DNA from: Gemmatimonadota bacterium
GTDB taxonomy: Bacteria > Gemmatimonadota > Gemmatimonadetes > Gemmatimonadales > GWC2-71-9
Direction of reading: 5' to 3'
DNA: 64,000 nucleotides
Assembly (NCBI GenBank): GCA_039588295.1
Contig: JBDHAB010000006.1
Span: 1-64,000 of the forward strand
Shown here: positions 19,621-36,265 of the stretch, one piece after another
How positions within the stretch are numbered: position 1 is the first letter of the stretch
Layout: the number at the start of each line of letters is the position of its first letter
Program-made: the position numbers and the translations under genes
The notes under the pieces: model-generated
The model's database searches: none
Seen by the model: only the letters and a program-made list of their open reading frames with translations
Told to the model about the DNA's origin: nothing

Positions 19621-20802
19621 ATGACCGCTATGAAGGAGCGTCAAGGGCCATTGTCGACCATCGTCACCTACCTCTCCTGGTGGCGCACGATCGCGGCGGG
19701 AGACCGGGAGGTGATCGATGCCGTCGTCCATCCGGCGCACCGTGGCCCGTCCCCGGACCTCGAGCACGCGCTCGCGAACTGGCCGGGCCCGTACTACTGG
19801 TCGCGCGGCGACGGTGAGGGCCGTCTCGTCCTGATTCGGTTGCTGCGGCCGCCGGGGCGTGAACGGTGGTGGCTCCACGCACTGCTCTTCGGTGCCACGT
19901 TCATCACCGTGTGGATGGGGGGAGCGCTCCTCGCCGGATCGCGCCTCCCACTGGCCTTTCCCTTCAGCATCGACTTTTCCCACGTGCCGCAGCTGCTCGG
20001 TGATCTCGTGTCTCAGCTGCTCACCTCACGGCCGGGACTCGACTTCGCGATGGCCCTGATGGCGATTCTGCTCGCCCATGAGTCCGGGCACTATCTCACA
20101 GCCCGCCGGTACGGGATCAACGCGTCACCGCCGTACTTCATTCCGGCGCCGCCGATCGTGAACTTCATCGGCACGTTCGGCGCGTTCATCCGTCTGCGCA
20201 GTCCGGTTGTGGATCGTCGACAGCTCATGGACGTTGGTGCGGCCGGTCCCTGGGCCGGATTCCTCGTCGCCCTGATCGCATTGGTGGTGGGGTTGTCGCG
20301 GTCCCAGTTGGTGTCGGGAGTGGGCCCGTCGGAGCAATTGGTGATCCTCGCGGATTTCCAGCTCTATCTGGGCGACTCACCCATCATGTATGCACTGCGC
20401 CGTGCGATGGTTGGCGAGGGTACGGTGCTCCTGCATCCGCTGGCGTTCGCCGGTTGGATTGGACTCTTTGTGACGATGCTGAACCTGCTGCCGATGGGAC
20501 AGCTGGACGGTGGTCACGTCTTGTACGCGTTGATCGGTCGACGCCAGGCCATGGTGAGCAGCGCCGCGTGGTTCGGGATCGTGGCGCTCGGCTTCATCGT
20601 CGGGAGGGAGACGTCACCGTGGATCGCATGGTTCTGGTGGATCTGGGCGATCGTGATCCTGCTGCTCAGTCGCGGTCGTCTCCATCATCCCAACGTTATG
20701 GATCGTCACCGTCCGTTGCCCACTGGACGCAAGATGCTCGGGGTCGCAACGCTGCTGCTGTTCGTCGGCACCTTCAGCCCTATCCCCGTTTACTACATCT
20801 AA
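19621..20802 (+). CDS. Site-2 protease (M50) family membrane metalloprotease
   Basis: HESGH, GTFGAFI, AAGP, NLLPMGQLDGGH; multiple TM segments. Confidence 0.92.
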   Translation: MTAMKERQGPLSTIVTYLSWWRTIAAGDREVIDAVVHPAHRGPSPDLEHALANWPGPYYWSRGDGEGRLVLIRLLRPPGRERWWLHALLFGATFITVWMGGALLAGSRLPLAFPFSIDFSHVPQLLGDLVSQLLTSRPGLDFAMALMAILLAHESGHYLTARRYGINASPPYFIPAPPIVNFIGTFGAFIRLRSPVVDRRQLMDVGAAGPWAGFLVALIALVVGLSRSQLVSGVGPSEQLVILADFQLYLGDSPIMYALRRAMVGEGTVLLHPLAFAGWIGLFVTMLNLLPMGQLDGGHVLYALIGRRQAMVSSAAWFGIVALGFIVGRETSPWIAWFWWIWAIVILLLSRGRLHHPNVMDRHRPLPTGRKMLGVATLLLFVGTFSPIPVYYI

Positions 20803-20949
20803 CGCGGTCCGGCATGCGCCCGGCCGCACCGGCGTCGGCGCAGTCGTGCGCATGCTCGCGTCCAAGGTGTTGGACTCCCGCACCACCGGCTGTGGGAGGC
20901 CTGCCGCGCGTCCCGTGCGCGGCATCCGGTGGTATTGCGTAAGTCCTAG

Positions 20950-21276
20950 ATGCGTTTATATTTGCGCAAACCAACAGGGCAACCGTCGATGCCGGGGACC
21001 CCGGTCCGCTACAGCGCTCCAGATCCAAGCGAACCCGCGATTCACGACCTCCCGCCGCTCAAGTATGAGGCGGGGCCCGTGGCGGTTCGCCTCGAGATGC
21101 GCCGCGCGGAAGACGGTACGTGGCGGGGGAGGCTGCTGTTTGGCCCCACGGAATCCGGGTCAGCGCCCGCCACGGCGGAGATCTTTTGCGCGGTGACCGA
21201 GAGCGATCTCTGGGAGTGCGTGCACGATCTTCGGGAGCACCACCTGCGGGACCTCTTTCGCTCGGTCACCGAGTAG
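20950..21276 (+). CDS. Small hypothetical protein
   Basis: ORF with globular-looking sequence (DGTWRGRLLF, TAEIF, HLRDLFRS); alternative ATG at 20989. Confidence 0.65.
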   Translation: MRLYLRKPTGQPSMPGTPVRYSAPDPSEPAIHDLPPLKYEAGPVAVRLEMRRAEDGTWRGRLLFGPTESGSAPATAEIFCAVTESDLWECVHDLREHHLRDLFRSVTE

Positions 21277-21524: not shown

Positions 21525-22880
21525 ATGCTAGACGCCTACCCAGGGAGTCGCTCGTCGCGTCGACCCCTCCGCACTGTCGTGTCGGTCAGTTTCGCACTTG
21601 CCCTGTCGGGGTGTGCCGGGGCTCGTCCGGTCGCGGTCTCGCCAAACGAGATTCCCACGTTGGAACAACAGTTGGTGGGTGAGCCGCAGAACGCCGGCGT
21701 ACTGCTCCGGTACGCAGCGGCGTTATTTGCGTCCGGCCAATGCGACAGCGCGATGAGTGTTGCGCGCAGTGGAGCGAACCTCGCACCGCACGACGCGTTG
21801 GCGCCGCTCGTTATCGGGCAGTGTCTCGAACGTGACCGTGAGTGGGAACAGGCGCTCGATACCTATCGTGCGTTCCTCGCCGCCCATGCCGATCGACGTG
21901 GTGCGCCTACTGTGCGTGCCCGACAAGTGCTCGTGCAGCGTGCGCGTGCGAATGAACGAGCACAGGTTGCGCTGGCTCATGAGACCGAGCTCGCGCAGCA
22001 GGCCGCGGACCCGCAAACAGTGGCCGTCCTCCCGCTGGACATCGTCGGTGACTCGACGTATCAGCCGCTGTCCCGCGGTCTCGCACAGATTCTGACGTCT
22101 GACCTCGCACTGCTCCAGCGGTTCCGCCTGGTCGAGCGACTGCAAGTCGGTGCGCTCATTGACGAGATGGCGCTCGCCGAGACTGGAGCGGTCGATCGCG
22201 CGACTGCGGCCCGTGTGGGGCGCTTGCTGCAGGCCGGTCGCATGGTACAAGGACTCGCGGCGATCCCGCCCGAGGGAGAAGCCCGACTCGAGGCGAGCGT
22301 CGTGGTCACGACCGGAGAAGTGTCTACGCCGTCGGTACAGCGGGGACGCGTGCGCGACCTTCTCCGAATGGAGAAGCAGCTCGTCGTCGATCTCGCCCAG
22401 CGGATGGGATACCTCCTCTCTGAGGCAGAACTTCGTGTCGTGCTGGAGAACGGCACCCAGAACCTCGCGGCCTTCCTGGCGTATTCGCGCGGCTTGGTGG
22501 CGGAGGATCGTGGGGATTACCGGGCGGCAGCAGCGTACTTTGCGGAAGCGGTCCGGCAAGATCCGGGCTTCGAAGCCGCGCGGACCGAGCTCCAATCGTC
22601 GACTGTGACACCCGAAGTCATGCAAGCTGCGCCGACGGACATTACGACTCTCGCAACAGAGACCGTGAGCCAACCTGCGCTCATCGTCGAGCCGCCGCTC
22701 GGCAGCGTGGTCGCCTCGACCATCGGCGACATCGCGGCCACGCAGTCGGAACAGGTGAGCACGTTGCCGACCCAACCCGTGAGCGGGACCCAGACCACCA
22801 CATCGCAGCCGCCACCGACGCCGACGGTGGTCGGTACGACGTTGATGGGGACCGTCCGCATCTTCTTCCGACTGCCATGA
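21525..22880 (+). CDS. Lipoprotein with TPR repeats and CsgG/HfaB-like domain
   Basis: GGAG RBS, ATG 21525; lipobox LSGC; TVAVLPL..GLAQILTSDL..FRLVER..TAARVGRLL CsgG-like segment; TPR AYSRGL..AVRQDPGF; Thr/Pro linker and terminal strand VRIFFRLP. Confidence 0.8.
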   Translation: MLDAYPGSRSSRRPLRTVVSVSFALALSGCAGARPVAVSPNEIPTLEQQLVGEPQNAGVLLRYAAALFASGQCDSAMSVARSGANLAPHDALAPLVIGQCLERDREWEQALDTYRAFLAAHADRRGAPTVRARQVLVQRARANERAQVALAHETELAQQAADPQTVAVLPLDIVGDSTYQPLSRGLAQILTSDLALLQRFRLVERLQVGALIDEMALAETGAVDRATAARVGRLLQAGRMVQGLAAIPPEGEARLEASVVVTTGEVSTPSVQRGRVRDLLRMEKQLVVDLAQRMGYLLSEAELRVVLENGTQNLAAFLAYSRGLVAEDRGDYRAAAAYFAEAVRQDPGFEAARTELQSSTVTPEVMQAAPTDITTLATETVSQPALIVEPPLGSVVASTIGDIAATQSEQVSTLPTQPVSGTQTTTSQPPPTPTVVGTTLMGTVRIFFRLP

Positions 22881-24010
22881 GTATCCGTCGACTCGTACCT
22901 GCCGTCGCCGTCGCGCTTGGTTTCGCCGGGGCTGCGAAGGCGCAGGTCCCGATTCGGACATCGGTGGCGTTCTTCTCGGAGACCTACAACTTTGATGCCG
23001 GTTTGCCCTACAAGCGCGTCAACGAATACTCCGTGCCGATCGGGATCACGGTCCCCTTCGGACGGTACGGTGATCTCACGCTGTCTACCGGTTACGCGCA
23101 CATCGTGCTGCGTTCGGCCGATCGAGCGTTGTTCCAGGATCAGCGGCTCTCGGGAGTGGTCGACACCGAGCTACGGGCGTCGTGGAATGCGATTCCCGGT
23201 CGCCTCGTCACGTTCGTCACGGCCGCGCTCCCCACGGGAATCGAAACGGTCGAGGGAGAGGAGCTGCAGATTCTCGGCGCGCTGGCGAGCGATGTCATCG
23301 GCTTCACAGCGCCGACCGTCGGCAGTGGAGGCAGTATCGGCGCCGGTTTTGGCGGAGCGGTGCCGCTCACAGCGTCGTGGTCCGTTGGGGTGGGCGGCAC
23401 GTTTCGCAAACCCCTGTCCTATGTGCCCGTCCTCGGCAACCCGCGGGAGCTCCAACCCGGGGCGGAATTCCGGGCGCGCGTCGGGGTCGAGGGACCGCTC
23501 GCTCGCAAGACTTATGTGCGGGTCGCCGCAGTGTTCGCGCATCGAGCCAGGGATGCGTTGGCGGACACCACGGTAAACGGAGTGGGCAACCGCATCATTG
23601 GCTATGTCTCACTGAGCCAGGGAATCGGCAACGCATCGCTGATCTTGTATGGCTATGACGTGTTTCGTGGCAGTCCCCAGATCGAACAGACCGCGTTTGG
23701 GGCCGCTGTGCTCCAGCGCGGCAACCTCATTGGTGGCGGCGCTCGGGTGGATATCCCCGTAACGCCACGACTCACGGTCGTACCGCGGGGGGAATTCCGT
23801 TTGGCCACCGAGGGGCGGCCCGCGAGCCAGTTCAAGCTGCTGAAAGTCGGTCAGTCGCTTCGCGGTGGCGTCGCCGCCCGGTATCAGGTCACCCGTCAGT
23901 TCGCGGTCGTGCTGCAGGGAAGCGGTACCACGGGATTCGTGGTGCAGGACTTTGAGCACATCGACTTCCGTGGCGTCCGTGGCTCCGTCCACGCCGAGTG
24001 GAGGCCGTGA
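22877..24010 (+). CDS. Predicted outer-membrane beta-barrel protein
   Basis: Signal peptide ending AKA-Q; alternating amphipathic strands; C-terminal VHAEWRP; ATGA overlap with the upstream gene. Confidence 0.7.
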   Translation: MSIRRLVPAVAVALGFAGAAKAQVPIRTSVAFFSETYNFDAGLPYKRVNEYSVPIGITVPFGRYGDLTLSTGYAHIVLRSADRALFQDQRLSGVVDTELRASWNAIPGRLVTFVTAALPTGIETVEGEELQILGALASDVIGFTAPTVGSGGSIGAGFGGAVPLTASWSVGVGGTFRKPLSYVPVLGNPRELQPGAEFRARVGVEGPLARKTYVRVAAVFAHRARDALADTTVNGVGNRIIGYVSLSQGIGNASLILYGYDVFRGSPQIEQTAFGAAVLQRGNLIGGGARVDIPVTPRLTVVPRGEFRLATEGRPASQFKLLKVGQSLRGGVAARYQVTRQFAVVLQGSGTTGFVVQDFEHIDFRGVRGSVHAEWRP

Positions 24011-25362
24011 GAGAATCAGTCACGGCAGCGCTGATGTGCGCGGCCGTGGCCGCCTGCGGAGAGTTTGCAGCTCCTTCCAATCCCAATGTATCGTTCGCAG
24101 TTGTCCCGGTCTTCGGGAGCAACGCGGCGTTCGCGAGTGACGCGAACCGGCTCCGCATCATCCTGCTTCGTGAAGTCGCGGGTGAGTTCACCGAGGTAGC
24201 CCGCGTCGTGGTCGACATCGACCCGGTCACAGGCACGGCGGATACGACGCTGCAGGTGTCACTGACCGCAAGCCCGACGCTCTTCCGCATCGTGCTCGAG
24301 GCTGTGCGAAGTGCGGATGGCATGGTGCTGTTCACGGGCTCGAGCGACGTGCTGGTCGAGGCCGGTACGAGTGGTGGGGCAACCCCGGTCGAGATTCCGG
24401 TGACGTACGCGGGCCCGACGGCGGCCACGGTCATCCTCGCGCCGAGGGACACTGCCGTCGACGTCGGTGGCACGTTCCGGTTTCGAGCTACGGCATTTGA
24501 CGGTCAGGGCTCGGCCGTCGACGTGCCGCTCCGTTTCTTCCTTGTGAATGCGGCCGATGCCACCAGGCTGACGGTCGATCGGCTGTCGGGCGACGCGGAA
24601 GCCCTGAGCGCTGGGGGTCAGGTGAGTGTGTTCGTTCGAACCGCCGACACTGCGGCAGCGGACACCACGCGAGTCTTCCTCGGCGTGCAGCCCGGAGCGA
24701 TCCAAGTGACGCCCGGGTACGCGAACGTCGGAGTGGAGAGCAGCGTGCGGCTCGACGCGATCCTCTTGGATGCGAACGGGAATCCCGCCGGAACGGCGAC
24801 GGCGACATGGACCTCGCGCGACGCAGGCGTGGCCATGGTCGATGGCAGCGGACTCGTAACGGGAGTCGCCCCAGGCACAGCAGTCATCGTAGCTGTCGCA
24901 TCGGGGTTCACCGATTCGGCGCTGGTAACTGTACCACCTGCCGGTGACGTGGTCGTCTCCACCACCTCGAATGACCGGGCGTTCCGTGTAACCACGGTCG
25001 GGGACACGGTGGTTGTGGACGTCATCGCGGACATGACCTTCACACCGAGTGAGCTCTTGGGGAGTTACAACGCGGTGCTGACGTGGGATCCGTCGGTGCT
25101 GTCCTTCCTGGATGTGCAACCGGGTGACTTCCCGGTGCCACAGGTAAACAGCGCCAACGCCGCCGTTGGAGAGTTGCGCTTTGCTCAGGCGGAGGCAAAC
25201 GGGGCCGCCGGTACGGTTGTGGTTGCGCGAGTTCGGCTTGTCACGCTCGCCGCGGGCTCCACGGTGCCGGCGGTGGCAATAACGGAGATGTCGGCGGCAC
25301 AAACCTTCACCGATCTGCTGGCCCGGGTCACCGTGACGAGCGGGACCGTCACGGTGCAGTAA
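24007..25362 (+). CDS. Lipoprotein with Ig-like (Big_2) domains and C-terminal cohesin domain
   Basis: Lipobox VAAC; WTSRDAGVAMVDGSGLVTGVAPG Big_2 motif; cohesin-like LGSYNAVLTWDPSVL...GELRF at about 24985-25360; GTGA overlap (alternative start 23998). Confidence 0.75.
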   Translation: MRESVTAALMCAAVAACGEFAAPSNPNVSFAVVPVFGSNAAFASDANRLRIILLREVAGEFTEVARVVVDIDPVTGTADTTLQVSLTASPTLFRIVLEAVRSADGMVLFTGSSDVLVEAGTSGGATPVEIPVTYAGPTAATVILAPRDTAVDVGGTFRFRATAFDGQGSAVDVPLRFFLVNAADATRLTVDRLSGDAEALSAGGQVSVFVRTADTAAADTTRVFLGVQPGAIQVTPGYANVGVESSVRLDAILLDANGNPAGTATATWTSRDAGVAMVDGSGLVTGVAPGTAVIVAVASGFTDSALVTVPPAGDVVVSTTSNDRAFRVTTVGDTVVVDVIADMTFTPSELLGSYNAVLTWDPSVLSFLDVQPGDFPVPQVNSANAAVGELRFAQAEANGAAGTVVVARVRLVTLAAGSTVPAVAITEMSAAQTFTDLLARVTVTSGTVTVQ

Positions 25363-25375
25363 GAGGAGGCATTCG

Positions 25376-25903
25376 ATGATGCGACCGGTTCGATTCTTGA
25401 CGCTTGCCGCGTTGTTGGCATTGGTGGGGTGCGATGAAGAACCGCTCAATCCTCGCGGTCCGGGGGAACCCCCACCCCCTGTCGAGGGCATACAAGCGTT
25501 CCTCCAGGTGGACGACGACCGAGCGCAACCCGGCGAGCAGGTAAACGTGTACGTCAAAGTGCAGTTCGGGACGGAGACGGATGCCAAGCTGGGCAGCTAC
25601 ACCGGCCGACTGCGGTTCGATGCGAAGACGCTCGACCTGGCCAGCACAGTCGAGATCAACGACGGCATGCGGGTTGTGAACCCGAACAACGCCGGAGCCG
25701 GTGAGATCAGGTTTGCGGGTGCGGCACCCCGTGGCTTTGAGAACCTGACCGTCTATCATGGCCTGTTCGAAGTGAAGGACACGGGGTACATGGATGCCCT
25801 GCGGCTCGAGATGGAGGAACTCTCCGCCGCGATGACGCTCACGGATCTCGAACCGCAGTTACAGGTCGCACCGCAGATCTTTTTGCGGCAAGGCGGGAAC
25901 TAG
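25376..25903 (+). CDS. Small lipoprotein with a single cohesin-like domain
   Basis: GAGGAGG RBS; lipobox LVGC; LGSYTGRLRFDAKTL...AGEIRFAG...EELSAAMTLTDL matches the neighbouring cohesin repeats. Confidence 0.72.
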   Translation: MMRPVRFLTLAALLALVGCDEEPLNPRGPGEPPPPVEGIQAFLQVDDDRAQPGEQVNVYVKVQFGTETDAKLGSYTGRLRFDAKTLDLASTVEINDGMRVVNPNNAGAGEIRFAGAAPRGFENLTVYHGLFEVKDTGYMDALRLEMEELSAAMTLTDLEPQLQVAPQIFLRQGGN

Positions 25904-25916
25904 CGCCGAGTAGCGT

Positions 25917-28900
25917 ATGAACGTGCGACGCGCTGTGACGACTACCGCGATGAGCGGAATCCGGCTCCTGCTGGCCGGCGCTCTGGTGTTGGGTGGACTG
26001 TCGGGCCGGGCGCGGGCGCAGGCCATTCCGGTGACCGTGGGGGCGGGCGCGTCATCCATCATCGGCAAGGACTTTGACCTCCCGCTTGTCGTCGATATGT
26101 CGGCCCGATCGGATAAGCTCGGGAGCTTCTCCGTCAGCCTGCGGTGGGATCCTGCGGTGCTCCAACTCATTACCGGCCAGGACGGCACGTTCGGGCCGGT
26201 GGAGACCAACGAGGACTCTGTTGCCAACGGGTTGTTGCTGATTGCCGGTGCCAATCCCGCAGGAGTCGGTGGATTGGTCACCTTAGGCGTCGGTCGCTTT
26301 CGACCGCTGGCGTCGGACACGACCACGTTTCAAATCACTGTGCACGAGCTGTACGCCGCGGGGACGTTCGCGGATCTCACGCCGGACGTCGTTGTGGTCA
26401 CCAATCAGTATTGCCCCGGTCGCGGTCGCTACGGTGATGTCGACCCCGACGGAGTCGTAGACAGTCGAGATGGCTTGATCGCGCTCATGGAGTCCGTCGG
26501 GCTCGACGTCTCAGCGTACGATATCGATCTGGCAGACGTCGACGCCGACGGGAATGTCGATCCCCGGGATGCGTTGGTGATTCTGTCTTACGGGATCGGC
26601 CTCGACGTGAGCGGCTTTCGCGTATTCACGATCGCCCCTGGTGGGATCTGCGCCCCTGCCGGTGGCCTGACGTACACGATGACGCCCGGCGACGTCAGCG
26701 TACTCGTCGACCAGGGTGTCCAGTACGTCCCGACTGCCGTGGACTCCGCGGGTTCCCCGGTTGCCATCGTGGGTCTGTCCTGGACTACAACGGACGCGGC
26801 TGTAGCCACGGTGGACTCGGTAGGGCTGGTGACGGCGCTCGCTCCCGGCTCAACCGTCATCGCGGCACTGCAAGACAGCTCGGTCGTGGGAACGGTGACG
26901 GTGACGGTGGTGGCGAGCCGAGGCACACACTGGGTGGACGCGCTCGCGGCCGGCGCGCTCAACCGGATCGGATCCCGGGTGCTGCCATTTGATGATGTTG
27001 CCTCGGCGCTCGCCGTCGCCGGAGCCAGCGACACGATCCGGATCTTACCGGGTCGCTATGAGGAGAACATCACCATCACCCAGCCGCAGGTGGTGTTGGG
27101 AGACACCGTCGGTGGAGGCGTGGCACCGCTGATCGCCGCCACGGGACCGTTCACGACGGGAATCGATATCACGGCCCCGGGACGGGTCGAACTTCGAAAC
27201 CTGCGACTCGACACGCTTTGGATCGGCGTGCAGGTGTTCTCGGCTGATACCGTCCTGGTCAAAGATGTGGAGTTCCGCGCAGTCGGCAGCAACTCTTTCG
27301 CGTCGATCCACGTTGACACGGTCACGGCACTGATCGTCGAAGGGTCCCGATTCTTCGGCGACGCAACGCCATTCGGGAACAACGCGATCAACGTGCTCGG
27401 GGGCGCGGGGCTCGTGCGGGTGGATTCGTCATTGATCGCCGATTTTGGAGACTACGGCATCGAGCTGTTCAACGTGGACAGTCTGTCCATGCGTGGCAAC
27501 GTGGTGCGGGACAACTACGGGTACGGTGTCTACACATGGTCCTCGGACAGCACGCGTGCAATCGCGGCGAGCCTCGTCGGCAATCGGTTCGAGCGTAACG
27601 GGTTCGGCCAGCTCTATCTCGGCATGGTACGCTCGGCGGCGTTCGACCACAACGTGCTCCTGACGTCGTCGGGCGGGAGCCAGGGGCTATTCGTCGGTGG
27701 GTTTACCCAGACCGTAGCGAGTCTTCTCGGAGATTCGATCGTAGCCCGCCAGGCCGATTGGCTATGGATGGACGCGTTCGACAGCCTTCACGTCGATTCG
27801 GTCTCGGTGCAGCAGCAGGAGTACGGCGGTGGGTACCTGTACCAAGGCCGAGCGGTCGTCGTCCGGAACTCGACGTTTACAGGGTTCCCGAACTTCGAAG
27901 CGGCAATCGACTTCGGCGCATCGGTGGTGTCGGGCGCGACTATGACCCTGCGGAACCTGAGCTTCTCGGGGCCCGACTCGTCCGTGTGCAACCGTTGCGC
28001 GTATGGGGCGTTGTGGACCAACGTCTCCGTCGACGCCGATAGCATCACGGGTGTGAATCTCTACACATTGCTGCGCCAACTCAGCGGAAGCCTGGTGGCA
28101 CGGAACCTCGACATCACGGATGCGTCGGCCGGGATCCGATCGCGGTTCTGCGGGGGTCCCGTGCGGGTCTCCAACATGACCGGGCTGGATGTGGAGACCG
28201 GCATTCATGCGGAAGCGTGTACCGGTCAGGATTCACTGGTCGTGGATTCGGTCGATTTCGCTCGCGGGACGTACGGCGTATACAGCTCCGCCATCCCGGT
28301 AGTGGTAACGAACTCGTCTTTTACCGACTACCAATACGGGATCTATCACTTTGACAGCACCCTGGTGGCCACGGACAATCACATCGTCCGGCCGAGGAAC
28401 TACGGCATTTACGCCGATTTCAACGGCAGTGGCGGGTCGATTTCGGCGCTGCGGAATGCCGTCACCTGCGATGCGTTCGGGGCGGTGACAGCGCTTGGGA
28501 TCGAGGTGTTTGACGGTCCCTCGCAAATCGTCCAGGACACGATCACCGGCTGCCAGGTAGGGATCGAAGCCGGGGACTTCGCGACGGGGGTCCCGGTCAG
28601 CTCGGAGATCCGAGACAACGTTGTGGCCACCCCGGGGAGCGCCAACGCCTGGGGTATTCGAAACTGGGGGTATTACGACGCATCACAGGTCGTGGGCAAC
28701 ACGGTGACCGGGCTCGCGGCTCGGGGGGCGATCGTCGTGGCCTCCAGTTGGCTGGGGGCGCCAGCTCCGCGGGCGGATGTGGACTCCAATACCGTCGACG
28801 GTGCGCTTTGCATCGGGATACAAACGTTCTACGCAGATACGCTGATGATCCGCGACAATGCCGTGCGCAACGTCCAGGCCTCGACGTGCAACGTCAGTGG

Positions 28901-29777
28901 CGCCAGCGGCGGTGGTGCAGCCATCGTGCTCTCACACAGCACGCCGACCGACGACGTCGCGGAGATTCGTCGCAACCGAATCACCGATGTGAAGACGCAC
29001 GGGATTGTGCTGGCTCGCGACTTCAACGATTCGGTCGTCGTGATCGTCGACAGCAACACAGTGAAGCGTGCCGACAGTGTCGGCATCTGGATCGCCGACT
29101 ACAGCAGCGCGTTGATCCGCTATAACGCGATCGACAGCGCCATGCACGACGCGGTGCAGACGTCCCGCTTCAACTCGACTGGAACGACCGGCAGCGTCAT
29201 TCTCAACCAGAACAATTTCACCAACTCTGGGCGTTACGGCGTCAGGAACACGGTGACCTGGGAGTGGATTGACGCCACCAACAACTGGTGGAACGACCCA
29301 AACGGACCCAGCGGCTTCTACGGTGATTCGTCCCGTACCTCCATCGGAGATTCCGTCTCGAACTTCGTGATCTGGTCGCCAGTGCTGACATCCCCCGCCA
29401 ACACGCCGGCACCGGCAGCACCGCTCGGCGCGCCGAGGCTGATGGCGACGGCAGGCAACGCCGCTCGCGCGGCGGCACCACCCGACGTCCCAGCGCCAGG
29501 TGCCGGGGCTCAGGTCCCAATACTTCCAAGGGATCTGGCACCGAGAGTACCGCAGATGCCGTCCGTGCTGGAGCGACAGCCGCGAGTGCTCCTCGGAGCC
29601 CCGGCACCGTGGCTCGAGCGCCTCCTCGAGCGCGATCGCCAACTGGACGACCGTCTTGGGGCTTTGCGTGAGCGGCGACGGGCGCGCCTCCTCGAGCGAG
29701 CGAAGTCCATCGAGGCGTTCGAACGGCAGCGGCCTCCCACGGGAGGTCCAGGCCGCCCCGAGGGGGGCGCCCGATGA
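25917..29777 (+). CDS. Secreted cohesin-dockerin-Big_2-parallel beta-helix protein (1286 aa)
   Basis: Signal ARA-Q; cohesin about 26025-26400; dockerin GDVDPDGVVDSRD/ADVDADGNVDPRD about 26430-26600; Big_2; DTIRILPGRYEE beta-helix cap; PbH1-like repeats; NNWWNDPNGP. Confidence 0.8.
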   Translation: MNVRRAVTTTAMSGIRLLLAGALVLGGLSGRARAQAIPVTVGAGASSIIGKDFDLPLVVDMSARSDKLGSFSVSLRWDPAVLQLITGQDGTFGPVETNEDSVANGLLLIAGANPAGVGGLVTLGVGRFRPLASDTTTFQITVHELYAAGTFADLTPDVVVVTNQYCPGRGRYGDVDPDGVVDSRDGLIALMESVGLDVSAYDIDLADVDADGNVDPRDALVILSYGIGLDVSGFRVFTIAPGGICAPAGGLTYTMTPGDVSVLVDQGVQYVPTAVDSAGSPVAIVGLSWTTTDAAVATVDSVGLVTALAPGSTVIAALQDSSVVGTVTVTVVASRGTHWVDALAAGALNRIGSRVLPFDDVASALAVAGASDTIRILPGRYEENITITQPQVVLGDTVGGGVAPLIAATGPFTTGIDITAPGRVELRNLRLDTLWIGVQVFSADTVLVKDVEFRAVGSNSFASIHVDTVTALIVEGSRFFGDATPFGNNAINVLGGAGLVRVDSSLIADFGDYGIELFNVDSLSMRGNVVRDNYGYGVYTWSSDSTRAIAASLVGNRFERNGFGQLYLGMVRSAAFDHNVLLTSSGGSQGLFVGGFTQTVASLLGDSIVARQADWLWMDAFDSLHVDSVSVQQQEYGGGYLYQGRAVVVRNSTFTGFPNFEAAIDFGASVVSGATMTLRNLSFSGPDSSVCNRCAYGALWTNVSVDADSITGVNLYTLLRQLSGSLVARNLDITDASAGIRSRFCGGPVRVSNMTGLDVETGIHAEACTGQDSLVVDSVDFARGTYGVYSSAIPVVVTNSSFTDYQYGIYHFDSTLVATDNHIVRPRNYGIYADFNGSGGSISALRNAVTCDAFGAVTALGIEVFDGPSQIVQDTITGCQVGIEAGDFATGVPVSSEIRDNVVATPGSANAWGIRNWGYYDASQVVGNTVTGLAARGAIVVASSWLGAPAPRADVDSNTVDGALCIGIQTFYADTLMIRDNAVRNVQASTCNVSGASGGGAAIVLSHSTPTDDVAEIRRNRITDVKTHGIVLARDFNDSVVVIVDSNTVKRADSVGIWIADYSSALIRYNAIDSAMHDAVQTSRFNSTGTTGSVILNQNNFTNSGRYGVRNTVTWEWIDATNNWWNDPNGPSGFYGDSSRTSIGDSVSNFVIWSPVLTSPANTPAPAAPLGAPRLMATAGNAARAAAPPDVPAPGAGAQVPILPRDLAPRVPQMPSVLERQPRVLLGAPAPWLERLLERDRQLDDRLGALRERRRARLLERAKSIEAFERQRPPTGGPGRPEGGAR

Positions 29778-31594
29778 GGTATCTGCGACTGATCTGTCTC
29801 GTGGGTCTCATCGGCGCGGTCAGTAGGCCGGTTCGGGCGCAGACGGTGGATCTGTACGTCGGCGGGTTAGACTCGCTCGTCGTCCTCACCGGGGATACGG
29901 CGAGCGCCGAGCTGTGGGTGAGCAACATCCCGTTCAGCGTCGGTGTCTCGCAGTATTCCATTGACCTGCTGCTCGACAGCAGCAGGGTCCGGGTGGTCTC
30001 GGTTGATTCACTCCCCGGTGAGAACTTGCCCATCCCGACCGTCACATGGCTGTCGTCCCAGCGCGTGCGCCTCTCGGGGAGCGGCACGGGCACGGCGGTG
30101 ACCAATGTCAGACTTGGCGTCGTGACGTTCGAGATCGACCCGCTCGCGCAGGAAGGCTCGTTGGTGAGTTTCGCGGTTAACTCACTGCTGGACCAGGCCG
30201 GCGCGAGTCTCCTGCCAAGCCACCGAACGGATCTACTCGACGTGTGTCAGGCGAATCGGCTGTACGGAGACGTGGATGTGAATCGGGTGGTGAACAGCCG
30301 CGATGCGCTGATCACGCTCACGTCGGCCGTTGGGATCGCTGTGGGAGCTCCCTTCGAGGTACAGTGGGGTGATGTTGATCTCGACCTCCAGGTGACCTCG
30401 CGTGACGCGCTGTTCATCTTGAGCGCCGGTGTAGGTCTCTCGGTTCCGTTCGGTGTCGTGGTGACCGAGCCGATACCCAATCGCTGCGCACCCCTGGAAC
30501 CAGCCTCGGCGGACCTGGCGTTCTACCGCGGCAGCGAACTGCACGTGATCGATCAGGGTGACTCGACTCCCCGACCCGTAAGTATGGACCCGTTGGCCCA
30601 GAGCTCCTACCGGGTCAGCTGGGCGCCCGACGGTACGCGAGTCGCCTATACCGGGTGGACCACGGCTGGGTTCGACTATGAGATCATCGCCGCCGATCGC
30701 GACGGGTCGAACCCGGACACGCTCACACGGAGTGCCAGCCGTGATTTCTCACCCGCGTGGTCCCCGGACGGCACCCAGATTGCGTTTCGCTCGATTTTCC
30801 GCAGTCCCAGTGGGATCTACGTCATGGACGCGGACGGGGGCAACCAAGTGCACATTGCCGGCACCGACACGCTGACCGTCGGCAACGATATCGCGTGGAG
30901 CCCCGACGGTGCCATGATCGCGTTTGTGGCCTATGGTTCGGCTACTCCCGGTGGCCCGTTCCACCCCTGGACGGCTGACCTCGCGGGTCAGACGCTGCAG
31001 CCGGTCCCGGCGACGACGATCCAGCACGCCGAGAGTCCGTCCTGGTCGTCGGCCAGCGACTCGCTCGTGTTCTATAGCTCGTTGGACGCTGGCCGCTTGT
31101 ACGTGATGGCCGTTCCGGATACTGCGGGGGTACCGGCCGCTTCGCTGCTCTTGGTTCAGCATTACCCCTGGTGGGCGCCGAACGGCATCGCGTTCCAATC
31201 CCAGCGCTTGTGGCCGTACCGGCTCTACCTGCGGCGAGCCTCCGATGGTCGCCATTTTCGACTCACGCGCGGGTCGGGCGGCAACGACATCCGTGTGACG
31301 ATGCGAGACCCGAATCTGGTCTATGTCGACGTCGTCTCGGTCGTGCCGGCGAGTGGCACGATACCCGCCGGCGCTCCGCTGCCGCTCACGGCAACAGTGA
31401 CGAACAGCGACCTGACCGTGAATGCCACCGTACCCCTCAGGTGGATCAGCCGCGATCCGACCATTGCCACAGTGGCACCGACGGGGACACGGACGGCCGA
31501 CGTGTCCGGTGTCGGAACATCGGGGCAGAGCACGTGGATCGTCGTGACCGCTGGGGGCTGGCGCAGTGACAGCTCGCAGGTGACGGTGCAATGA
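29774..31594 (+). CDS. Secreted cohesin-dockerin-TolB-like (PD40) beta-propeller-Big_2 protein
   Basis: Signal VRA-Q; divergent cohesin; dockerin GDVDVNRVVNSRD/GDVDLDLQVTSRD about 30265-30435; repeated WSPDG..IAF; WISRDPTIATV. Confidence 0.8.
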   Translation: MRYLRLICLVGLIGAVSRPVRAQTVDLYVGGLDSLVVLTGDTASAELWVSNIPFSVGVSQYSIDLLLDSSRVRVVSVDSLPGENLPIPTVTWLSSQRVRLSGSGTGTAVTNVRLGVVTFEIDPLAQEGSLVSFAVNSLLDQAGASLLPSHRTDLLDVCQANRLYGDVDVNRVVNSRDALITLTSAVGIAVGAPFEVQWGDVDLDLQVTSRDALFILSAGVGLSVPFGVVVTEPIPNRCAPLEPASADLAFYRGSELHVIDQGDSTPRPVSMDPLAQSSYRVSWAPDGTRVAYTGWTTAGFDYEIIAADRDGSNPDTLTRSASRDFSPAWSPDGTQIAFRSIFRSPSGIYVMDADGGNQVHIAGTDTLTVGNDIAWSPDGAMIAFVAYGSATPGGPFHPWTADLAGQTLQPVPATTIQHAESPSWSSASDSLVFYSSLDAGRLYVMAVPDTAGVPAASLLLVQHYPWWAPNGIAFQSQRLWPYRLYLRRASDGRHFRLTRGSGGNDIRVTMRDPNLVYVDVVSVVPASGTIPAGAPLPLTATVTNSDLTVNATVPLRWISRDPTIATVAPTGTRTADVSGVGTSGQSTWIVVTAGGWRSDSSQVTVQ

Positions 31595-34500
31595 AGCGCC
31601 ATCTGATGCACGGTTTGGCGGCGCTGTCGATTGCCGTGCCGCTCCACGCTCAGACGGTCGTCGTGGGTGTCGGCGGCGAGTTGAGCGCCAACCTGTTCGA
31701 GGATGTGAACGTTCCGGTCTTCGCGGATATGCGTGGTATACCCGGCGAGAGGCTTGGGAGCTACACCGTTCGGGTGAGTTGGGATCCGGCTGTTCTCAGC
31801 TACCTCGGGGTGGCCCCTGGGACCTTCGCCGCTCCGGTTGTTCGTACCGACAGCGTGTTCGGCGGGATCGTGTACGTCACCGCCGTATCGGTGGTTGGCC
31901 GGGATTCGGTCGTCGATCTATTCAACCTGGAGCTCTACTTCCACACAACGGGCACGAGTGCCATCGATATCCAGGTCACGGAGCTCTCCGGTATCGGACC
32001 GTCGTTCACCGACTTCGTCGCGGCCGCCGCCGTGTCGACGGTGAGCGGCACGTTCTGTCCGGCCGGCGGCAGGTGGGGCGACCTCGATGCAGACGGATTC
32101 GCCAATAGCCGAGACGCGCTGGCGATTCTCACGAGCGTGGTCCAACTCCCCGTGAGCCCGGCATTCGACCTTGCGCTCGGAGACGTGGATGGCGACGGGA
32201 AGGTCGACACGCGCGACGCGCTCATTCTGTTGTCCTACGCGGTGGGAATTGATATCGCCGGACAGCGGGTACTGCTCGTGGTGCCTGGTGCATGCGGCAC
32301 CGGTAACACACCGTTGATCGTGATTGTCCCGGACACCGCCGACCTCGTCGGGGGCCAGTCCGTGCGCCTGCACGCCTTGATTAGTGACTCTTCGGGTAAC
32401 TCGACGCTCGCCGCAGGCGTGAACTGGCAGGTCGCGGATCCCAGCGTGGCCACGGTCGATACTGCCGGTCTGCTCACCGTCCGCGACAGCGGGACGACCA
32501 CAGTCACCGCCGCCTTGGGACCGGGCATTCGGGCCACGGCGACCGTGATCGGCCGGCTTCGTCGGCCCGTGTGGTATGTGGATGCCACGACCGCGACGCG
32601 GCAGACCGTTCAGATGGGCACGCAACAGTGGCCCTTCTCCACGCCGGAGCTGGTCTTCCCGCACCTGAGCGAGGGCGACACCGTCATGATCGCCCCGGGT
32701 GTCCACGACTACGCTGATACGACGTTCAATTGGATCGACGTTGGCGCCGTGTTCATCGGCGATACCAGCGGCGGGGTCGCGCGGCCCGTCCTTCGGGCTC
32801 GAGAGGCAGACTTCGTGGACGCGTTCCCATGGTCGGGTGGCGTGCGCGGGGAGTTGCGGAATCTCGTGCTCAAGGGCTTCTACTACGGCGTGGACATGAG
32901 CGGGCTCAAGTCCCTGGTGATGGACAACGTCAGGATCGAGGCGCCGCGCACGGGCTGGGGCTACGGACTCTTGGTCGACCAACCCGCCGATACGATCACG
33001 GTCATGCGAAGCGAGCTGGTGGGTGACTCGGCGTTTGGCGGGATCGGCATCTACGTGAGCCAAGGTGCCGAACTCTTCAACCTGCATGACTCACGGGTCA
33101 TCCAGTGGGGTGGTGAGGGACTCTGGGGGTATGACGTGGATTCCCTCGATGTGCTACGGAGCGAGATAAGCCACAACTCCAGTGAGGGCATTTTCCTGTT
33201 GACATCGAGCAGTCCCAGCGTGAGCGCTCGAATCTCGCAGAGTCGCTTCGAGAGCAATTACTCGGAGACGATCTACATCGGTGGCGCGCGCACGGTGGCG
33301 CTGGACCACAACTATCTCTTCGTCGATGACGGTGACGCCATCGACGTCTTTGGCCCCAGCGATCCGCTCGGAAGGGCAGCCGGGGTCAAGTTCTCCTCGC
33401 TCGGTGACTCGCTCGAGTTCCGTGCCGACGACTACGATTGGCTCGATGTGTCCGACATGGATAGCGTGATCATCGATTCCCTGTGGTTCGAGAACCCTGC
33501 GGACACGGCGATCTATCAGTACGGCTGGATCCGGGCCAACTCCGCGGTGATCACGAACTCCGAGCTACTCAATCTGTGGCAAGAAGGAATCGACTTCAAC
33601 GGCCGGTCGTTGGCAGTGGACAATACAACCTTCACGGGGTGTCAGAATCCCACAGATTGCGATTGGCTCGACGTCACCGCGATCGACGCCTGGTCCGGCA
33701 CCGACTCCGGACCGGCTGTCACCATCGCCAACTCGTCGTTTTGGAACGTCTGGTACGCGCTGAGGACAACTTCCTCGAACGACAGCGCGGGGCCCACCAT
33801 CCTTCAGAACAACATGGTCGATAGTGCGTCGTACGCGTTCCAGGTCAACGGCGACAGCGTCGTGATCACAGACAACGATCTGAGTCGGATTCAGTACTAC
33901 GGTGTTTGGGACGACCGGTCTGGTGCTAACAAGCCACCCGAGTTCGCCACAATCGCGCGGAACCGAATCACCTGCGCCATCACGGCGGCGGCCTCGTATG
34001 GAATCGTTCATGCCAACGCGCCAGCGCGGATCGAAGCCAACACGGTCAACGACTGTGATTACGGAATCTGGGTGGACAACTCGACCGTGTATCCGCTCCA
34101 GACGATCGAGATCGTCCAAGACACGATCAACATGGACGTGGGGGGCACAGGCATCTATGGCATCTACCTCACGAATCGGTGGCTTGCGACCGTGTCGCAC
34201 AATCGGATCCGTAACGCCGGCATCTACGGGGTGTACTTGACGCCGAATATTCTCGTTGGTGACGCTGCCGCGATGACTGTGGACAGCAATGCGGTGTCGG
34301 GCTCCGGCTCCATCGGGATCTATCTCACGCCGTCTGATTCGATGGATGTCGTCGGTCGGTGGAACAACATCGCGAACAATGCGGTCGACGGCGTCCAGTC
34401 GGCTGGCACGGGAGTCCGCAGCTTCACACTGGGTCGTTTCGTGGGGAATGGCCGGTACGGGGTGTACAATCTTGGCTTGCAGACCTTCGATGCGACACAG

Positions 34501-34872
34501 AACTGGTGGGGGGATCCGGCCGGCGTCGGCGGTCCGGGAGCGGACACCGTGTTTGGAGCGGTCGATCCCAGCAACCCGCTGGCGTCCGATCCGACTGGGA
34601 CGGTGCCACCGTTGGTGCCCCCTGCAAGCGGACTCGTGGCGAACATCCCGCAAGCGACTGATGCTCTGCGCCCTGCACCGCAGGTAACCCGTGCCGCTCA
34701 CGATGAAGCTGCAGTACGGAAGGCGCAACGCATCGAGCGAATGAAACTGCGTGACGCGCAACGGGCTGCAAAGGAAGCGGAGAAACTCCGCCGACAACAG
34801 GAGCTCGGGCGCGAGAGGCAGGCGATCTCGCAGCGGCGCGTCGTCAAGTCCGGGGAGTCGCCCATGCAGTAA
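31591..34872 (+). CDS. Secreted cohesin-dockerin-Big_2-parallel beta-helix protein (1093 aa), paralog of 25917-29777
   Basis: Signal LHA-Q; LGSYTVRVSWDPAVL cohesin; dockerin GDLDADGFANSRD/GDVDGDGKVDTRD about 32075-32250; GDTVMIAPG; QNWWGDPAG. Confidence 0.8.
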   Translation: MKRHLMHGLAALSIAVPLHAQTVVVGVGGELSANLFEDVNVPVFADMRGIPGERLGSYTVRVSWDPAVLSYLGVAPGTFAAPVVRTDSVFGGIVYVTAVSVVGRDSVVDLFNLELYFHTTGTSAIDIQVTELSGIGPSFTDFVAAAAVSTVSGTFCPAGGRWGDLDADGFANSRDALAILTSVVQLPVSPAFDLALGDVDGDGKVDTRDALILLSYAVGIDIAGQRVLLVVPGACGTGNTPLIVIVPDTADLVGGQSVRLHALISDSSGNSTLAAGVNWQVADPSVATVDTAGLLTVRDSGTTTVTAALGPGIRATATVIGRLRRPVWYVDATTATRQTVQMGTQQWPFSTPELVFPHLSEGDTVMIAPGVHDYADTTFNWIDVGAVFIGDTSGGVARPVLRAREADFVDAFPWSGGVRGELRNLVLKGFYYGVDMSGLKSLVMDNVRIEAPRTGWGYGLLVDQPADTITVMRSELVGDSAFGGIGIYVSQGAELFNLHDSRVIQWGGEGLWGYDVDSLDVLRSEISHNSSEGIFLLTSSSPSVSARISQSRFESNYSETIYIGGARTVALDHNYLFVDDGDAIDVFGPSDPLGRAAGVKFSSLGDSLEFRADDYDWLDVSDMDSVIIDSLWFENPADTAIYQYGWIRANSAVITNSELLNLWQEGIDFNGRSLAVDNTTFTGCQNPTDCDWLDVTAIDAWSGTDSGPAVTIANSSFWNVWYALRTTSSNDSAGPTILQNNMVDSASYAFQVNGDSVVITDNDLSRIQYYGVWDDRSGANKPPEFATIARNRITCAITAAASYGIVHANAPARIEANTVNDCDYGIWVDNSTVYPLQTIEIVQDTINMDVGGTGIYGIYLTNRWLATVSHNRIRNAGIYGVYLTPNILVGDAAAMTVDSNAVSGSGSIGIYLTPSDSMDVVGRWNNIANNAVDGVQSAGTGVRSFTLGRFVGNGRYGVYNLGLQTFDATQNWWGDPAGVGGPGADTVFGAVDPSNPLASDPTGTVPPLVPPASGLVANIPQATDALRPAPQVTRAAHDEAAVRKAQRIERMKLRDAQRAAKEAEKLRRQQELGRERQAISQRRVVKSGESPMQ

Positions 34873-34965: not shown

Positions 34966-36102
34966 TCAGGCCATTGGAGCCGTCGCTCTCCTCGGGCACG
35001 GCGGCAACGCTGCCTCGGCGGCGACAAAGTCGCTCGGCATGCTCTCCAGACACTCCAGGGGGTCGCAACAGGTGTGACACACCCGCTTGAACCCGCGGAA
35101 ACCCAGAAGCTGCACTTGTGGTGCGAGGAACGCTGGCTTGGCGGGCTCCTGGGCAAGCAGGTCGGTGCTCAAGTACTTCTTGTTGTCATCGCAGAACACG
35201 GTGACGACCACGGCCTCCGATCCCATTTCGTTCTGGACACGGAGGGCGCCGAGAAAGTTCGCCCCGGAGGAAATCCCCACGCCGAGCCCCAGCTCGGTCG
35301 CGAGCTTCTGCGCCATCAGAATCGCGTCGCCATCATCCACGTCGACGACAGCATCGAGGAAATCCAGATCCACAATGGGCGGAATGAACTCATCGGAGAT
35401 CCCCTGGATTCGGTGTCTACCCACGCGGTGGCCTGTTGAAAGCGTCGGGGAGCTGGCGGGTTCCAACGGGTGCAGTTTCACATCGGGGTGGCGAGCGCGG
35501 AGGAACTGACCGACACCCATGATCGTGCCACCCGTACCGACACCCGCGACGAAGGCATCCGGAAACGCGTCGCGAAACCTGAGTTGCCACCAGATTTCCG
35601 GCCCCGTCGCCTGGGCGTGTGCCTCGATGTTGTCACGGTTTGAGAACTGCCGTGGCAGGAACGCGTGGTCCGACTGGGCCGCCAGCTGCTCGGCCCGCTC
35701 GATGCTGCCGAGGAAGCCACCTTCCTCCTTACTCACCAGCTGAATGTCAGCCCCCAGGCTCCGGATCAGATTGATACGTTCGGCGCTCATCCAATCCGGC
35801 ATGAAGATGGTAACCGGGTGGCCCATGGCCCGCCCGATTGCCGCAATGGAAATCCCGGTGTTGCCGCTGGTCGCCTCCACGAGACGATCGCCTGGCTGAA
35901 GCGCACCCGTGGAATAGCCCTGTTGCAGAATGAACAGCGCCATGCGGTCCTTGATGCTCCCGGTCATGTTGATGTGCTCGGCCTTGGCATAGATCACGCG
36001 CGGCTTGCCACGAACGGTGAAGTCAACGGCGAGCAGCGGTGTATTGCCCACCAGACACTTCAATCCACGGATGCGGCGTTCGAGATCCCGACTGGCCTCC
36101 AT
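34966..36102 (-). CDS. PLP-dependent cysteine synthase family protein with Cys-rich C-terminal tail
   Basis: [41 protein letters not shown]. Confidence 0.9.
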
Positions 36103-36265
36103 GGTCCCCTCACACGACGGATCGAATGGTATCCTCCCAAAGCACCCGCGAGTACCGAAGTGGAGTTTACGGGTCCAGGCTGCAGTCGGCAATCGGACCC
36201 GACGGGAGCCGGTTGTCGACCCCCGCAAGCCGGTTAGCTTCGGGTGTGTGGTAAGAGGATTGCGC

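Follow-up and report, generated by a model that had tools for sequence, protein, structure and literature searches.

A cohesin-dockerin operon in Gemmatimonadota with the predicted parts of a capped surface chain

Cohesin and dockerin modules are the binding pair of cellulosomes, whose adaptors, with one cohesin and one dockerin each, usually switch specificity between the two. Outside cellulosomes, open reading frame 2375 of A. fulgidus joins a cohesin and a dockerin in one chain. The Coh76/Doc75 pair of the same organism binds (PMC9705933), dockerin/cohesin proteins would serve the envelope of anaerobic methanotrophic (ANME) archaea, some of them combining a dockerin with cohesins, and non-cellulosomal modules in general are known but unexplained (PMC9012536). 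Here we analyze a seven-gene operon (g1 to g7, positions 21525-34872) in a stretch of 64,000 nucleotides, called the window below, from a Gemmatimonadota bacterium (Gemmatimonadales, GWC2-71-9; NCBI GenBank assembly GCA_039588295.1, contig JBDHAB010000006.1, positions 1 to 64,000 of the forward strand). The operon encodes five cohesins and three dockerins in what is a real, conserved, and apparently undescribed system. The literature searched, outside of which most subscription papers fall, contains no description of it or of a natural cohesin-dockerin (Coh-Doc) polymer, and in the searched parts of one review, diderms figure only as engineered hosts (PMC12484212).

With the anchoring and adaptor scaffoldins of the cellulosomes of C. 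thermocellum, C. cellulolyticum, and A. cellulolyticus, the operon shares the cohesin fold (Z 16-16.5 to type I cohesins), a two-repeat Ca-loop dockerin, and cell-bound cohesins as anchors, the last being predicted here. In contrast to those systems, the host is a diderm, the anchors are lipoproteins, there is no multi-cohesin scaffoldin, carbohydrate-binding module (CBM), or glycoside hydrolase, and every cargo is itself an adaptor, with recognition residues common to all classes. The cohesins occur one per protein, and a search of the genome adds only one small second locus; the sole dockerin outside the operon is without a recognized glycoside hydrolase or CBM. The A. fulgidus system is likewise non-cellulosomal and supplies both the best structural (2xdh) and the best profile match of the cohesin, but it consists of two small genes without large heads, position-specific clades, an eroded subunit, or an outer-membrane module. 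The ANME proteins are similar in their use of the modules in the envelope outside cellulosomes, but are archaeal, have up to five cohesins each, carry ABC substrate-binding and S-layer cargo, and vary between relatives (PMC9012536). By analogy, the operon would work most like the anchor-and-adaptor layer of a cellulosome turned into a repeating unit.

As a preliminary description of the window had stated, the seven genes are co-directional (all on the forward strand) and tightly packed; their junctions from g1 to g7 are a 4-nt overlap, a 13-nt overlap, two 13-nt gaps, and two 4-nt overlaps. A signal peptide or lipobox, read from the sequence by eye, is present on all seven proteins, also as stated: lipobox cysteines in g1 (Cys30), g3 (Cys20), and g4 (Cys19), and signal peptides ending in AxA-Q in g2, g5, g6, and g7. 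The first gene, g1 (21525-22880), encodes a lipoprotein with tetratricopeptide repeats (TPRs) and a CsgG core, the predicted periplasmic partner of g2 (22877-24010), which is a predicted 16-stranded outer-membrane beta-barrel of an unnamed family. The lipoprotein g3 (23998-25362, from a GTG start at 23998 that agrees with the starts of its homologues) has an N-terminal domain (24055-24450), a Big_2 immunoglobulin-like (Ig-like) stalk, and a C-terminal cohesin (about 24991-25359), and is the predicted tall anchor. The small lipoprotein g4 (25376-25903) is one cohesin (about 25490-25900) and the predicted short anchor. Neither has a dockerin in cis.

The three large proteins have a different layout, in which an N-terminal cohesin runs straight into a dockerin, and a near-invariant pair of Cys residues closes the dockerin. 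In g5 (25917-29777), a predicted chain subunit, the cohesin (26019-26408) and the dockerin (26409-26660, flanked by the conserved Cys pair) are followed by Big_2, a long right-handed beta-helix, a Pro/Ala linker, and an Arg-rich tail. The other predicted chain subunit, g7 (31591-34872), has a cohesin (31651-32049), a dockerin (32050-32307), Big_2, a right-handed beta-helix, and the same kind of linker and tail. Between them, the predicted chain terminator g6 (29774-31594) has an eroded cohesin (29843-30235), an intact dockerin (30236-30499), a TolB-like PD40 propeller, and Big_2. This tandem layout is present in all labelled homologues of g5, g6, g7, and gX, an optional fourth Coh-Doc protein that is absent from this operon. 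Pfam finds TPR and part of CsgG in g1, no family in g2, Big_2 and Cohesin in g3, Cohesin in g4, Dockerin, Big_2, and Beta_helix in g5 and g7, and Dockerin, PD40, and Big_2 in g6. The operon has a GC content of 0.63-0.65, which is the level of the rest of the window, and a recent foreign island was rejected on this ground and on the conservation of the flanks. A scan for promoters and terminators gave matches at or below chance (2 vs. 1.9; 3 vs. 7.3).

The five cohesin-type domains (~130 amino acids each) can be aligned with one another, and the alignment confirms that the copy in 29774-31594 (g6) is the most divergent, as first described. When the domains are cut out, Pfam Cohesin scores g3 at 26.2 bits (cut-off 24.1), g4 at 20.9, g7 at 14.1, and g5 at 13.4, and does not match the cut domain of g6; Dockerin_1 scores g7 at 37.1, g5 at 25.2, and g6 at 20.9 bits (cut-off 22.9). 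Profile against profile, the g4 family matches the other cohesins at E 5e-20; among PDB sequences, the g4 profile matches no cohesin with an E value of 1 or less, and a viral fold library gave only unnamed cohesin-level or weak matches. Each dockerin consists of two repeats of a Ca loop and a helix, in which D/N occupies loop positions 1, 3, 5, 9, and 12. Because several Pfam matches lie below the cut-off, the Coh-Doc unit of g5 was folded with AlphaFold2 from 114 sequences (predicted local distance difference score [pLDDT] 93.6, predicted template modelling score [pTM] 0.81). The best 20 structural matches of this model are all cohesins, led by A. fulgidus 2xdh (Z 16.9, root-mean-square deviation [rmsd] 1.8, 125 aligned residues) with type I cohesins tied, and its residues 136-201 match dockerin 8ajy_D (Z 8.7, rmsd 2.5, 66 aligned). 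The g5 unit is the only Coh-Doc module modelled, and it has the nine-stranded cohesin beta-sandwich; g3, g4, g6, and g7 are assigned by alignment only. The profile and fold comparisons thus agree with the module identities proposed at the outset, nothing in them contradicts a cohesin fold for the repeated domain, and on the strength of the model we regard the cohesin and dockerin modules as real.

To describe the presumptive docking face we used four motif elements (in g5 numbering, G35-S/A36, N64, E/D110, and F/L/Y117) and counted a domain as positive when it had at least three of the four. The LGS strand of the cohesins aligns with strand VGTCNF of the CipC cohesin 2vn5; in the C. thermocellum cohesin, Asn37, Asp39, Gly123, and Ala125 contact the dockerin, and the first two touch its Ser/Thr motif (PMC5772552). 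Cohesins of g3 (68/70), g4 (87/87), gX (29/30), g5 (36/36), and g7 (20/20) have the motif, compared with 0/25 in g6, in counts that exclude two short g6 rows and two misplaced gX rows. Since the face positions were partly chosen after the consensus had been seen, we also compared whole-domain identities in the 17 matched operons that contain g5, g6, and g7. Here the cohesin of g4 is the most conserved (0.59), followed by g5 (0.54), g3 (0.45), gX (0.44), g7 (0.42), and g6 (0.27), and the dockerins have identities of 0.62 (g7), 0.58 (g5), 0.52 (gX), and 0.52 (g6). In dockerin repeat 2, R11, D12, A13, L14, and L17 are kept in 90-100% of every class. Repeat 1, in which 5-27% of rows are mis-cut and appear as gaps, is alike among the classes, gX excepted. 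The motif is kept in the dockerin-free g3 and g4 and lost in the dockerin-bearing g6, and is therefore not a contact between cohesin and dockerin in cis. Since all dockerin classes share their recognition residues, the sequences of the four cohesins of g3, g4, g5, and g7 look able to bind one dockerin type. Taken together, these patterns point to g6 as a plug without a predicted socket and to the logic of a capped chain.

We propose that g5 to g7 may well stack head to tail into chains that are based on g3 and g4, probably lie at the cell surface, and probably end with g6; the binding and the location are predicted from sequence and from the structural model. The lipoproteins g3 and g4 would be exposed at the surface by way of an acidic patch after the lipid-bearing Cys, and g1-g2 would likely service or export lipoproteins of the g3 type. 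Ca2+-loaded dockerins of g5 and g7 would then bind g3 or g4, and each bound subunit would present a new cohesin. Because all dockerins have the same recognition residues, subunits of different kinds would mix in one polymer and its length would vary; g6 would join it through its dockerin while presenting no working socket. The beta-helix and propeller heads would project on Ig stalks, with binding a more likely role for them than cutting. The whole cassette may be a modular stand-in for the single giant Ig-repeat lipoprotein that occupies the same site in relatives.

The preliminary description had pictured two lipoprotein anchors and three dockerin-bearing cargos. The first half holds in that g3 and g4 are likely anchors, but each of the three cargos carries a cohesin as well, and the plain picture fails to explain why the cohesins of g5 and g7 keep an anchor-type motif. 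It could be rescued if only g3 and g4 bound dockerins and the tandem cohesin were a buttress, like the X module of X-dockerin dyads, leaving a single displayed layer. The cohesin indeed always immediately precedes the dockerin, also in variant loci that have the pair at the C terminus (L044 and L075-L078), a rigid unit is suggested by the pTM of 0.81 and the near-invariant Cys pair, and the face of g4 is far more conserved (0.93) than that of g5 (0.68) or g7 (0.57). A buttress, however, leaves unexplained why g5, g7, and gX keep the motif of the dockerin-free lipoproteins and g6 loses it despite an intact dockerin. A cohesin that acted only in this way would be predicted to have a surface unlike that of g3 and g4, and the conserved surface does not differ, which counts against it. 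We consider simple anchoring unlikely.

The cassette is conserved well beyond this genome. Among the genome and 60 relatives, the dockerin alignment matches 14/61 and the cohesin alignment 15/61, and the cassette is present in ten relatives that span two families. The tandem profile, used on an even sample of 401 genomes of the phylum with seven candidates scored per genome, matches 38 genomes at E 1e-10 and ten beyond 1e-50, the ten being nine with this type of operon and one (G003) with a variant. We found 220 homologues of g4 (the best 120 at 49-74% identity); the named homologues of g4 and g5 belong to Gemmatimonadales or Gemmatimonadetes. Out of 123 metagenome loci, 80 were kept. Where the flank is long enough, the gene immediately before g4 encodes a cohesin in 67 of 68 loci, and the gene immediately after it does so in 54 of 54. 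The order g1-g2-g3-g4-(gX)-g5-g6-g7 is unbroken in 82/82 loci with at least two labelled genes, in agreement with the gene set being co-conserved. In a tree of a subset of the tandems (70, taken from 23 loci or units), every position class falls on one side of a branch, with supports of 100/99, 100/100, 82/97, and 94/85. A contig scan with the g5 tandem confirmed one of 128 candidate stretches, a weak Planctomycetota match (35% over 91 residues), and a phage collection gave no match at E 0.01. A natural split of g7 in one relative (G002) was rejected, the break being a run of Ns where the assembly has a gap.

An M50 peptidase and a 108-residue reading frame lie upstream of g1 in most relatives (19621-21276 in the window), and cysK/thrC lie downstream of the cassette in several (34966-37552). 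Some close relatives have this cassette between the two flanks, G008 has a single giant Big_1 lipoprotein in its place, and in G004 and G006 the site is empty; the cassette is exchangeable cargo at the M50-cysK/thrC site.

Cohesins and dockerins occur in other combinations as well. A second locus in the same genome (G000:C9:1706-4550, reverse strand) encodes a Big_2-cohesin lipoprotein, an exported Coh-Doc protein of 320 amino acids, and a lipoprotein resembling g4. The recognition residues of the dockerin differ from those of the operon, so that the locus may hold an orthogonal pair. The counterpart of the Coh-Doc gene in G003 encodes 1349 amino acids, with an S8 peptidase and BACON domains before the same C-terminal Coh-Doc unit (52% identity), and the copy in C9 seems to be without this enzyme. 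In other Gemmatimonadota (loci L075-L089), g3/g4-like cohesin lipoproteins are accompanied by dockerin-bearing M4, M6, and M12 peptidases, Sortilin/BNR or RCC1 propellers, and long Big_1 proteins, suggesting a system for displaying proteases at the surface.

For the first two genes, the closest described systems lie in the outer membrane. Slam (type XI) is one chain that holds TPRs and a 14-stranded barrel. The g1-g2 module is like it in combining TPRs and a barrel beside putative surface lipoproteins, and differs in being two proteins, in having 16 strands, in its phylum, and in TPR_Slam score (24.3 vs. a cut-off of 35.2). In the PelBC system of Pseudomonas aeruginosa, PelC, which has an alpha/beta core in common with CsgG, forms rings on PelB with its TPRs (PMC13631591, PMC12141448). 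The 16-stranded barrel, the CsgG-core lipoprotein, and the TPRs are thus also together in one module there (PMC12141448, PMC13631591), and g1-g2 would have the PelBC parts list with the TPRs moved onto the lipoprotein. Differences are the identity of only 8%, the Ig-stalk lipoprotein neighbors, and the absence of synthase genes and of a TPR scaffold fused to the barrel.

The g1 protein begins with TPRs, continues with a CsgG/PelC-type alpha/beta core and one more TPR, and ends, after a Thr/Pro-rich linker, in a hydrophobic C-terminal strand. Pfam recognizes TPR_19 and, at 26.8 bits, CsgG; the lipoprotein had been called CsgG-like, which the match upholds, but only across profile positions 32-96 of 210, and an alignment of homologues shows no long hairpin of the CsgG pore type. 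Curlin, CsgE, and CsgF families are absent from the seven genes and the two upstream genes. The best 60 of 256 matches in a PDB search with the g1 profile are all TPR proteins, none of them CsgG or PelC. In homologues of g1, a conserved hydrophobic strand ends the protein after a low-complexity linker (22840-22880 in the window) and is a candidate segment for insertion into the g2 barrel.

The AlphaFold2 model of g2 (barrel only; pLDDT 86.1, pTM 0.80) has 16 long strands and a helix-bearing loop after strand 5, in keeping with the barrel originally noted. It matches PelB best (Z 20.5, rmsd 3.5, 277 aligned), with BcsC tied (19.9), then CdiB (19.3) and 4y25 (18.3), at identities of 5-8%; a shared barrel fold by itself shows no function. 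The protein belongs to no Pfam or NCBIfam family, and its own family has 1581 clusters at 50% identity. An assignment to the 12-stranded channels of COG4313 was rejected, as 4rl8 ranks only 46th. By the features tested, the operon is not a cellulosome, a curli system, a Slam system, or a Pel locus.

The g1-g2 module is far more widespread than its present cargo: g2 is present in 167/401 genomes of the phylum (a count that includes G186, marked unpublished), and the cassette is loaded onto g1-g2 in about 9/401. The system had been described as self-contained, which is right for the co-conserved gene set but not for g1-g2, nor for the genome, which holds a second g1-g2 pair in addition to the second small cohesin-dockerin locus. 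Lipoproteins encoded after g2 have an N-terminal domain in common with g3, although some g2 genes are without a g3-type lipoprotein gene after them. This domain (24055-24450 in the window) defines an unnamed family of mostly large lipoproteins in 132/401 genomes; a structure-atlas search with it returned unnamed clusters of low recognition value. It occurs together with g2 in 128 of the 132 genomes, g2 occurs alone in 39, and neither occurs in 230, with the qualification that the profile was built from genes beside g2 and that the genomes are kin and not independent. The second pair (G000:C19:1-4614; 50% and 42% identity to g1 and g2) is followed by a lipoprotein with a g3-type N-terminal domain, cut by the contig end, and the same region has a divergent CsgG-core gene and a Ser/Thr kinase with Big_2-like repeats.

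The heads of the large proteins are the beta-helices and the propeller expected from the sequence, with Pfam Beta_helix in g5 and g7 and PD40 in g6 (4e-14); in family searches they resemble the periplasmic proteins NosD and TolB. None of the seven proteins matches a glycoside hydrolase or CBM family, so the claim that recognizable cellulosomal enzymes are missing stands. In 71 sequences of g5, conservation of at least 85% is mostly confined to Gly, Asn, Cys, Trp, and turns of Asp-Ser; in residues 400-1120, Lys, Arg, and His never reach this level, and the nearly invariant Asp606, Asp622, and Asp627, with Trp615, make up the one candidate site. A PDB sequence search gave no meaningful solved relative of the g5 helix, a structure-atlas search with g7 gave generic beta-helix clusters, and the heads change fast in sequence among homologues. 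Judged from these sequences, binding or structure is more likely than catalysis for g5.

These observations bear on the idea of a polysaccharide enzyme complex, in which the beta-helices would be lyases, hydrolases, or modifiers and g1-g2 a PelBC-like channel for a sugar polymer or the products made from it. The idea gains from the exporters among the top matches of the barrel (PelB, BcsC, and 4y25, the last titled polysaccharide outer membrane secretin), from the CsgG core of PelC and its mounting on PelB (PMC13631591, PMC12141448), from the near-invariant Asp and Trp residues of g5, and from the enzymes that dockerins carry in variant loci (S8, M4, M6, and M12 peptidases). We nevertheless judge it improbable: synthase, glycosyltransferase, and carbohydrate-active enzyme families are absent from the seven genes, the protein transporter CdiB follows close behind the exporters, the g5 helix has neither a solved sequence relative nor conserved basic residues, and its conserved Asp residues each precede a Ser, like other repeated turns.

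The motif D-[ST]-[ALVIMT] is the O-glycosylation motif of Bacteroidota (PMC8550257). There are 24 copies in g5, where 6.6 are expected, and 19 in g7, where 5.7 are expected, numbers that none of 1000 shuffles reached. Enrichment is three- to fivefold in the heads, the Big_2 parts, and g3, 1.4- to 2.7-fold in the Coh-Doc parts, and absent in g1, g2, and g4. Eight of the 24 sites in g5 are at least 87% positionally conserved, and some may be structural turns.

As to location, acidic residues near the lipidated Cys direct lipoproteins to the surface in Bacteroidota (PMC5080379; PMC6222051). Position +3 after the Cys is D or E in most g4 homologues (93% of 109) and most g3-type lipoproteins (97% of 36), and 87% of the g4 homologues have at least two acidic residues at +2 to +6; in g1 homologues, positions +2 to +6 are without an acidic residue in 33/33. 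We infer that g3 and g4 may be surface exposed through a signal of the Bacteroidota type, although the phylum is a different one. Parts resembling a type IX secretion system (T9SS) also occur here outside Bacteroidota, as SprA-, PorV-, and PorU-like genes or genes with a T9SS sorting domain (G000:C42:48174-50291, C151, C18:2494-3102, C15:75225-75632, C68:11882-12196, C28, and C79). The last ~130 codons of g5 and g7 encode a Pro/Ala linker and then an Arg/Ala/Glu-rich tail of unconserved sequence, with a net charge of +6 to +9 over the final 60 residues; gX has a weaker form of it and g6 has none. This tail is a candidate export or membrane-binding signal.

The least likely reading that we considered, a periplasmic scaffold in which the lipoproteins would point from the outer membrane into the periplasm and hold the Coh-Doc proteins that assemble there beneath the barrel, would suit the lack of a known export signal in g5 to g7, the kinship of the heads with periplasmic NosD and TolB, and the single secretin of the genome, which adjoins type IV pilus-type genes, but not the acidic +3 residue in g3 and g4 and its absence from g1, the Ig stalks and fast-changing heads, the equivalent roles that proteases and giant Ig-repeat proteins hold in relatives, or the SprA-, PorV-, and PorU-like genes as a possible export route.

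Several points weigh against the capped chain itself. We take strands 6 and 8 to correspond to known contact residues, an assumption guided by the range aligned to 1ohz. The choice of face positions makes the contrast at the face partly circular, which does not apply to the whole-domain identities, and the core of the g6 cohesin is also less conserved (0.33 vs. 0.41-0.77 in the other classes), so that this domain may be under generally relaxed selection or may bind another partner. The predicted terminator gene sits in the middle of the order, not last. The class labels of the tandem tree came from an earlier tree, although they match gene order, and 12 of the 38 tandem-positive genomes have no match to g2. 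Of the 36 g3-type lipoproteins, only 6% have at least two acids near the Cys, which is weaker than the published signal. The g5 to g7 proteins have no T9SS sorting domain, PF18962 having four matches in the genome and none in the operon; the bore of a 16-stranded barrel seems too small for cargo that is folded and closed by disulfides; and no feature that we found explains how polymerization would be blocked before export.

With these points taken into account, we tentatively put forward, as a possibility somewhat short of probable, a new class of bacterial surface fibers held together by cohesin-dockerin bonds, with g3 and g4 as bases, g5, g7, and the optional gX as extenders, and g6 as the cap, built on an unnamed g1-g2 lipoprotein exporter that is assembled from PelBC parts and present in ~40% of the sampled Gemmatimonadota. 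To the question of what non-cellulosomal cohesins and dockerins do, the operon brings a closed set of modules; the chain model predicts four working sockets among them and a nonworking one in g6. If true, the chain would be a further way for bacteria to build polymers at their surface, next to strand exchange and isopeptide bonds, and its subunits would be a natural self-extending Coh-Doc block for engineering. The g1-g2 module is a candidate pathway by which lipoproteins could reach the cell surface in a widespread but little-studied phylum.

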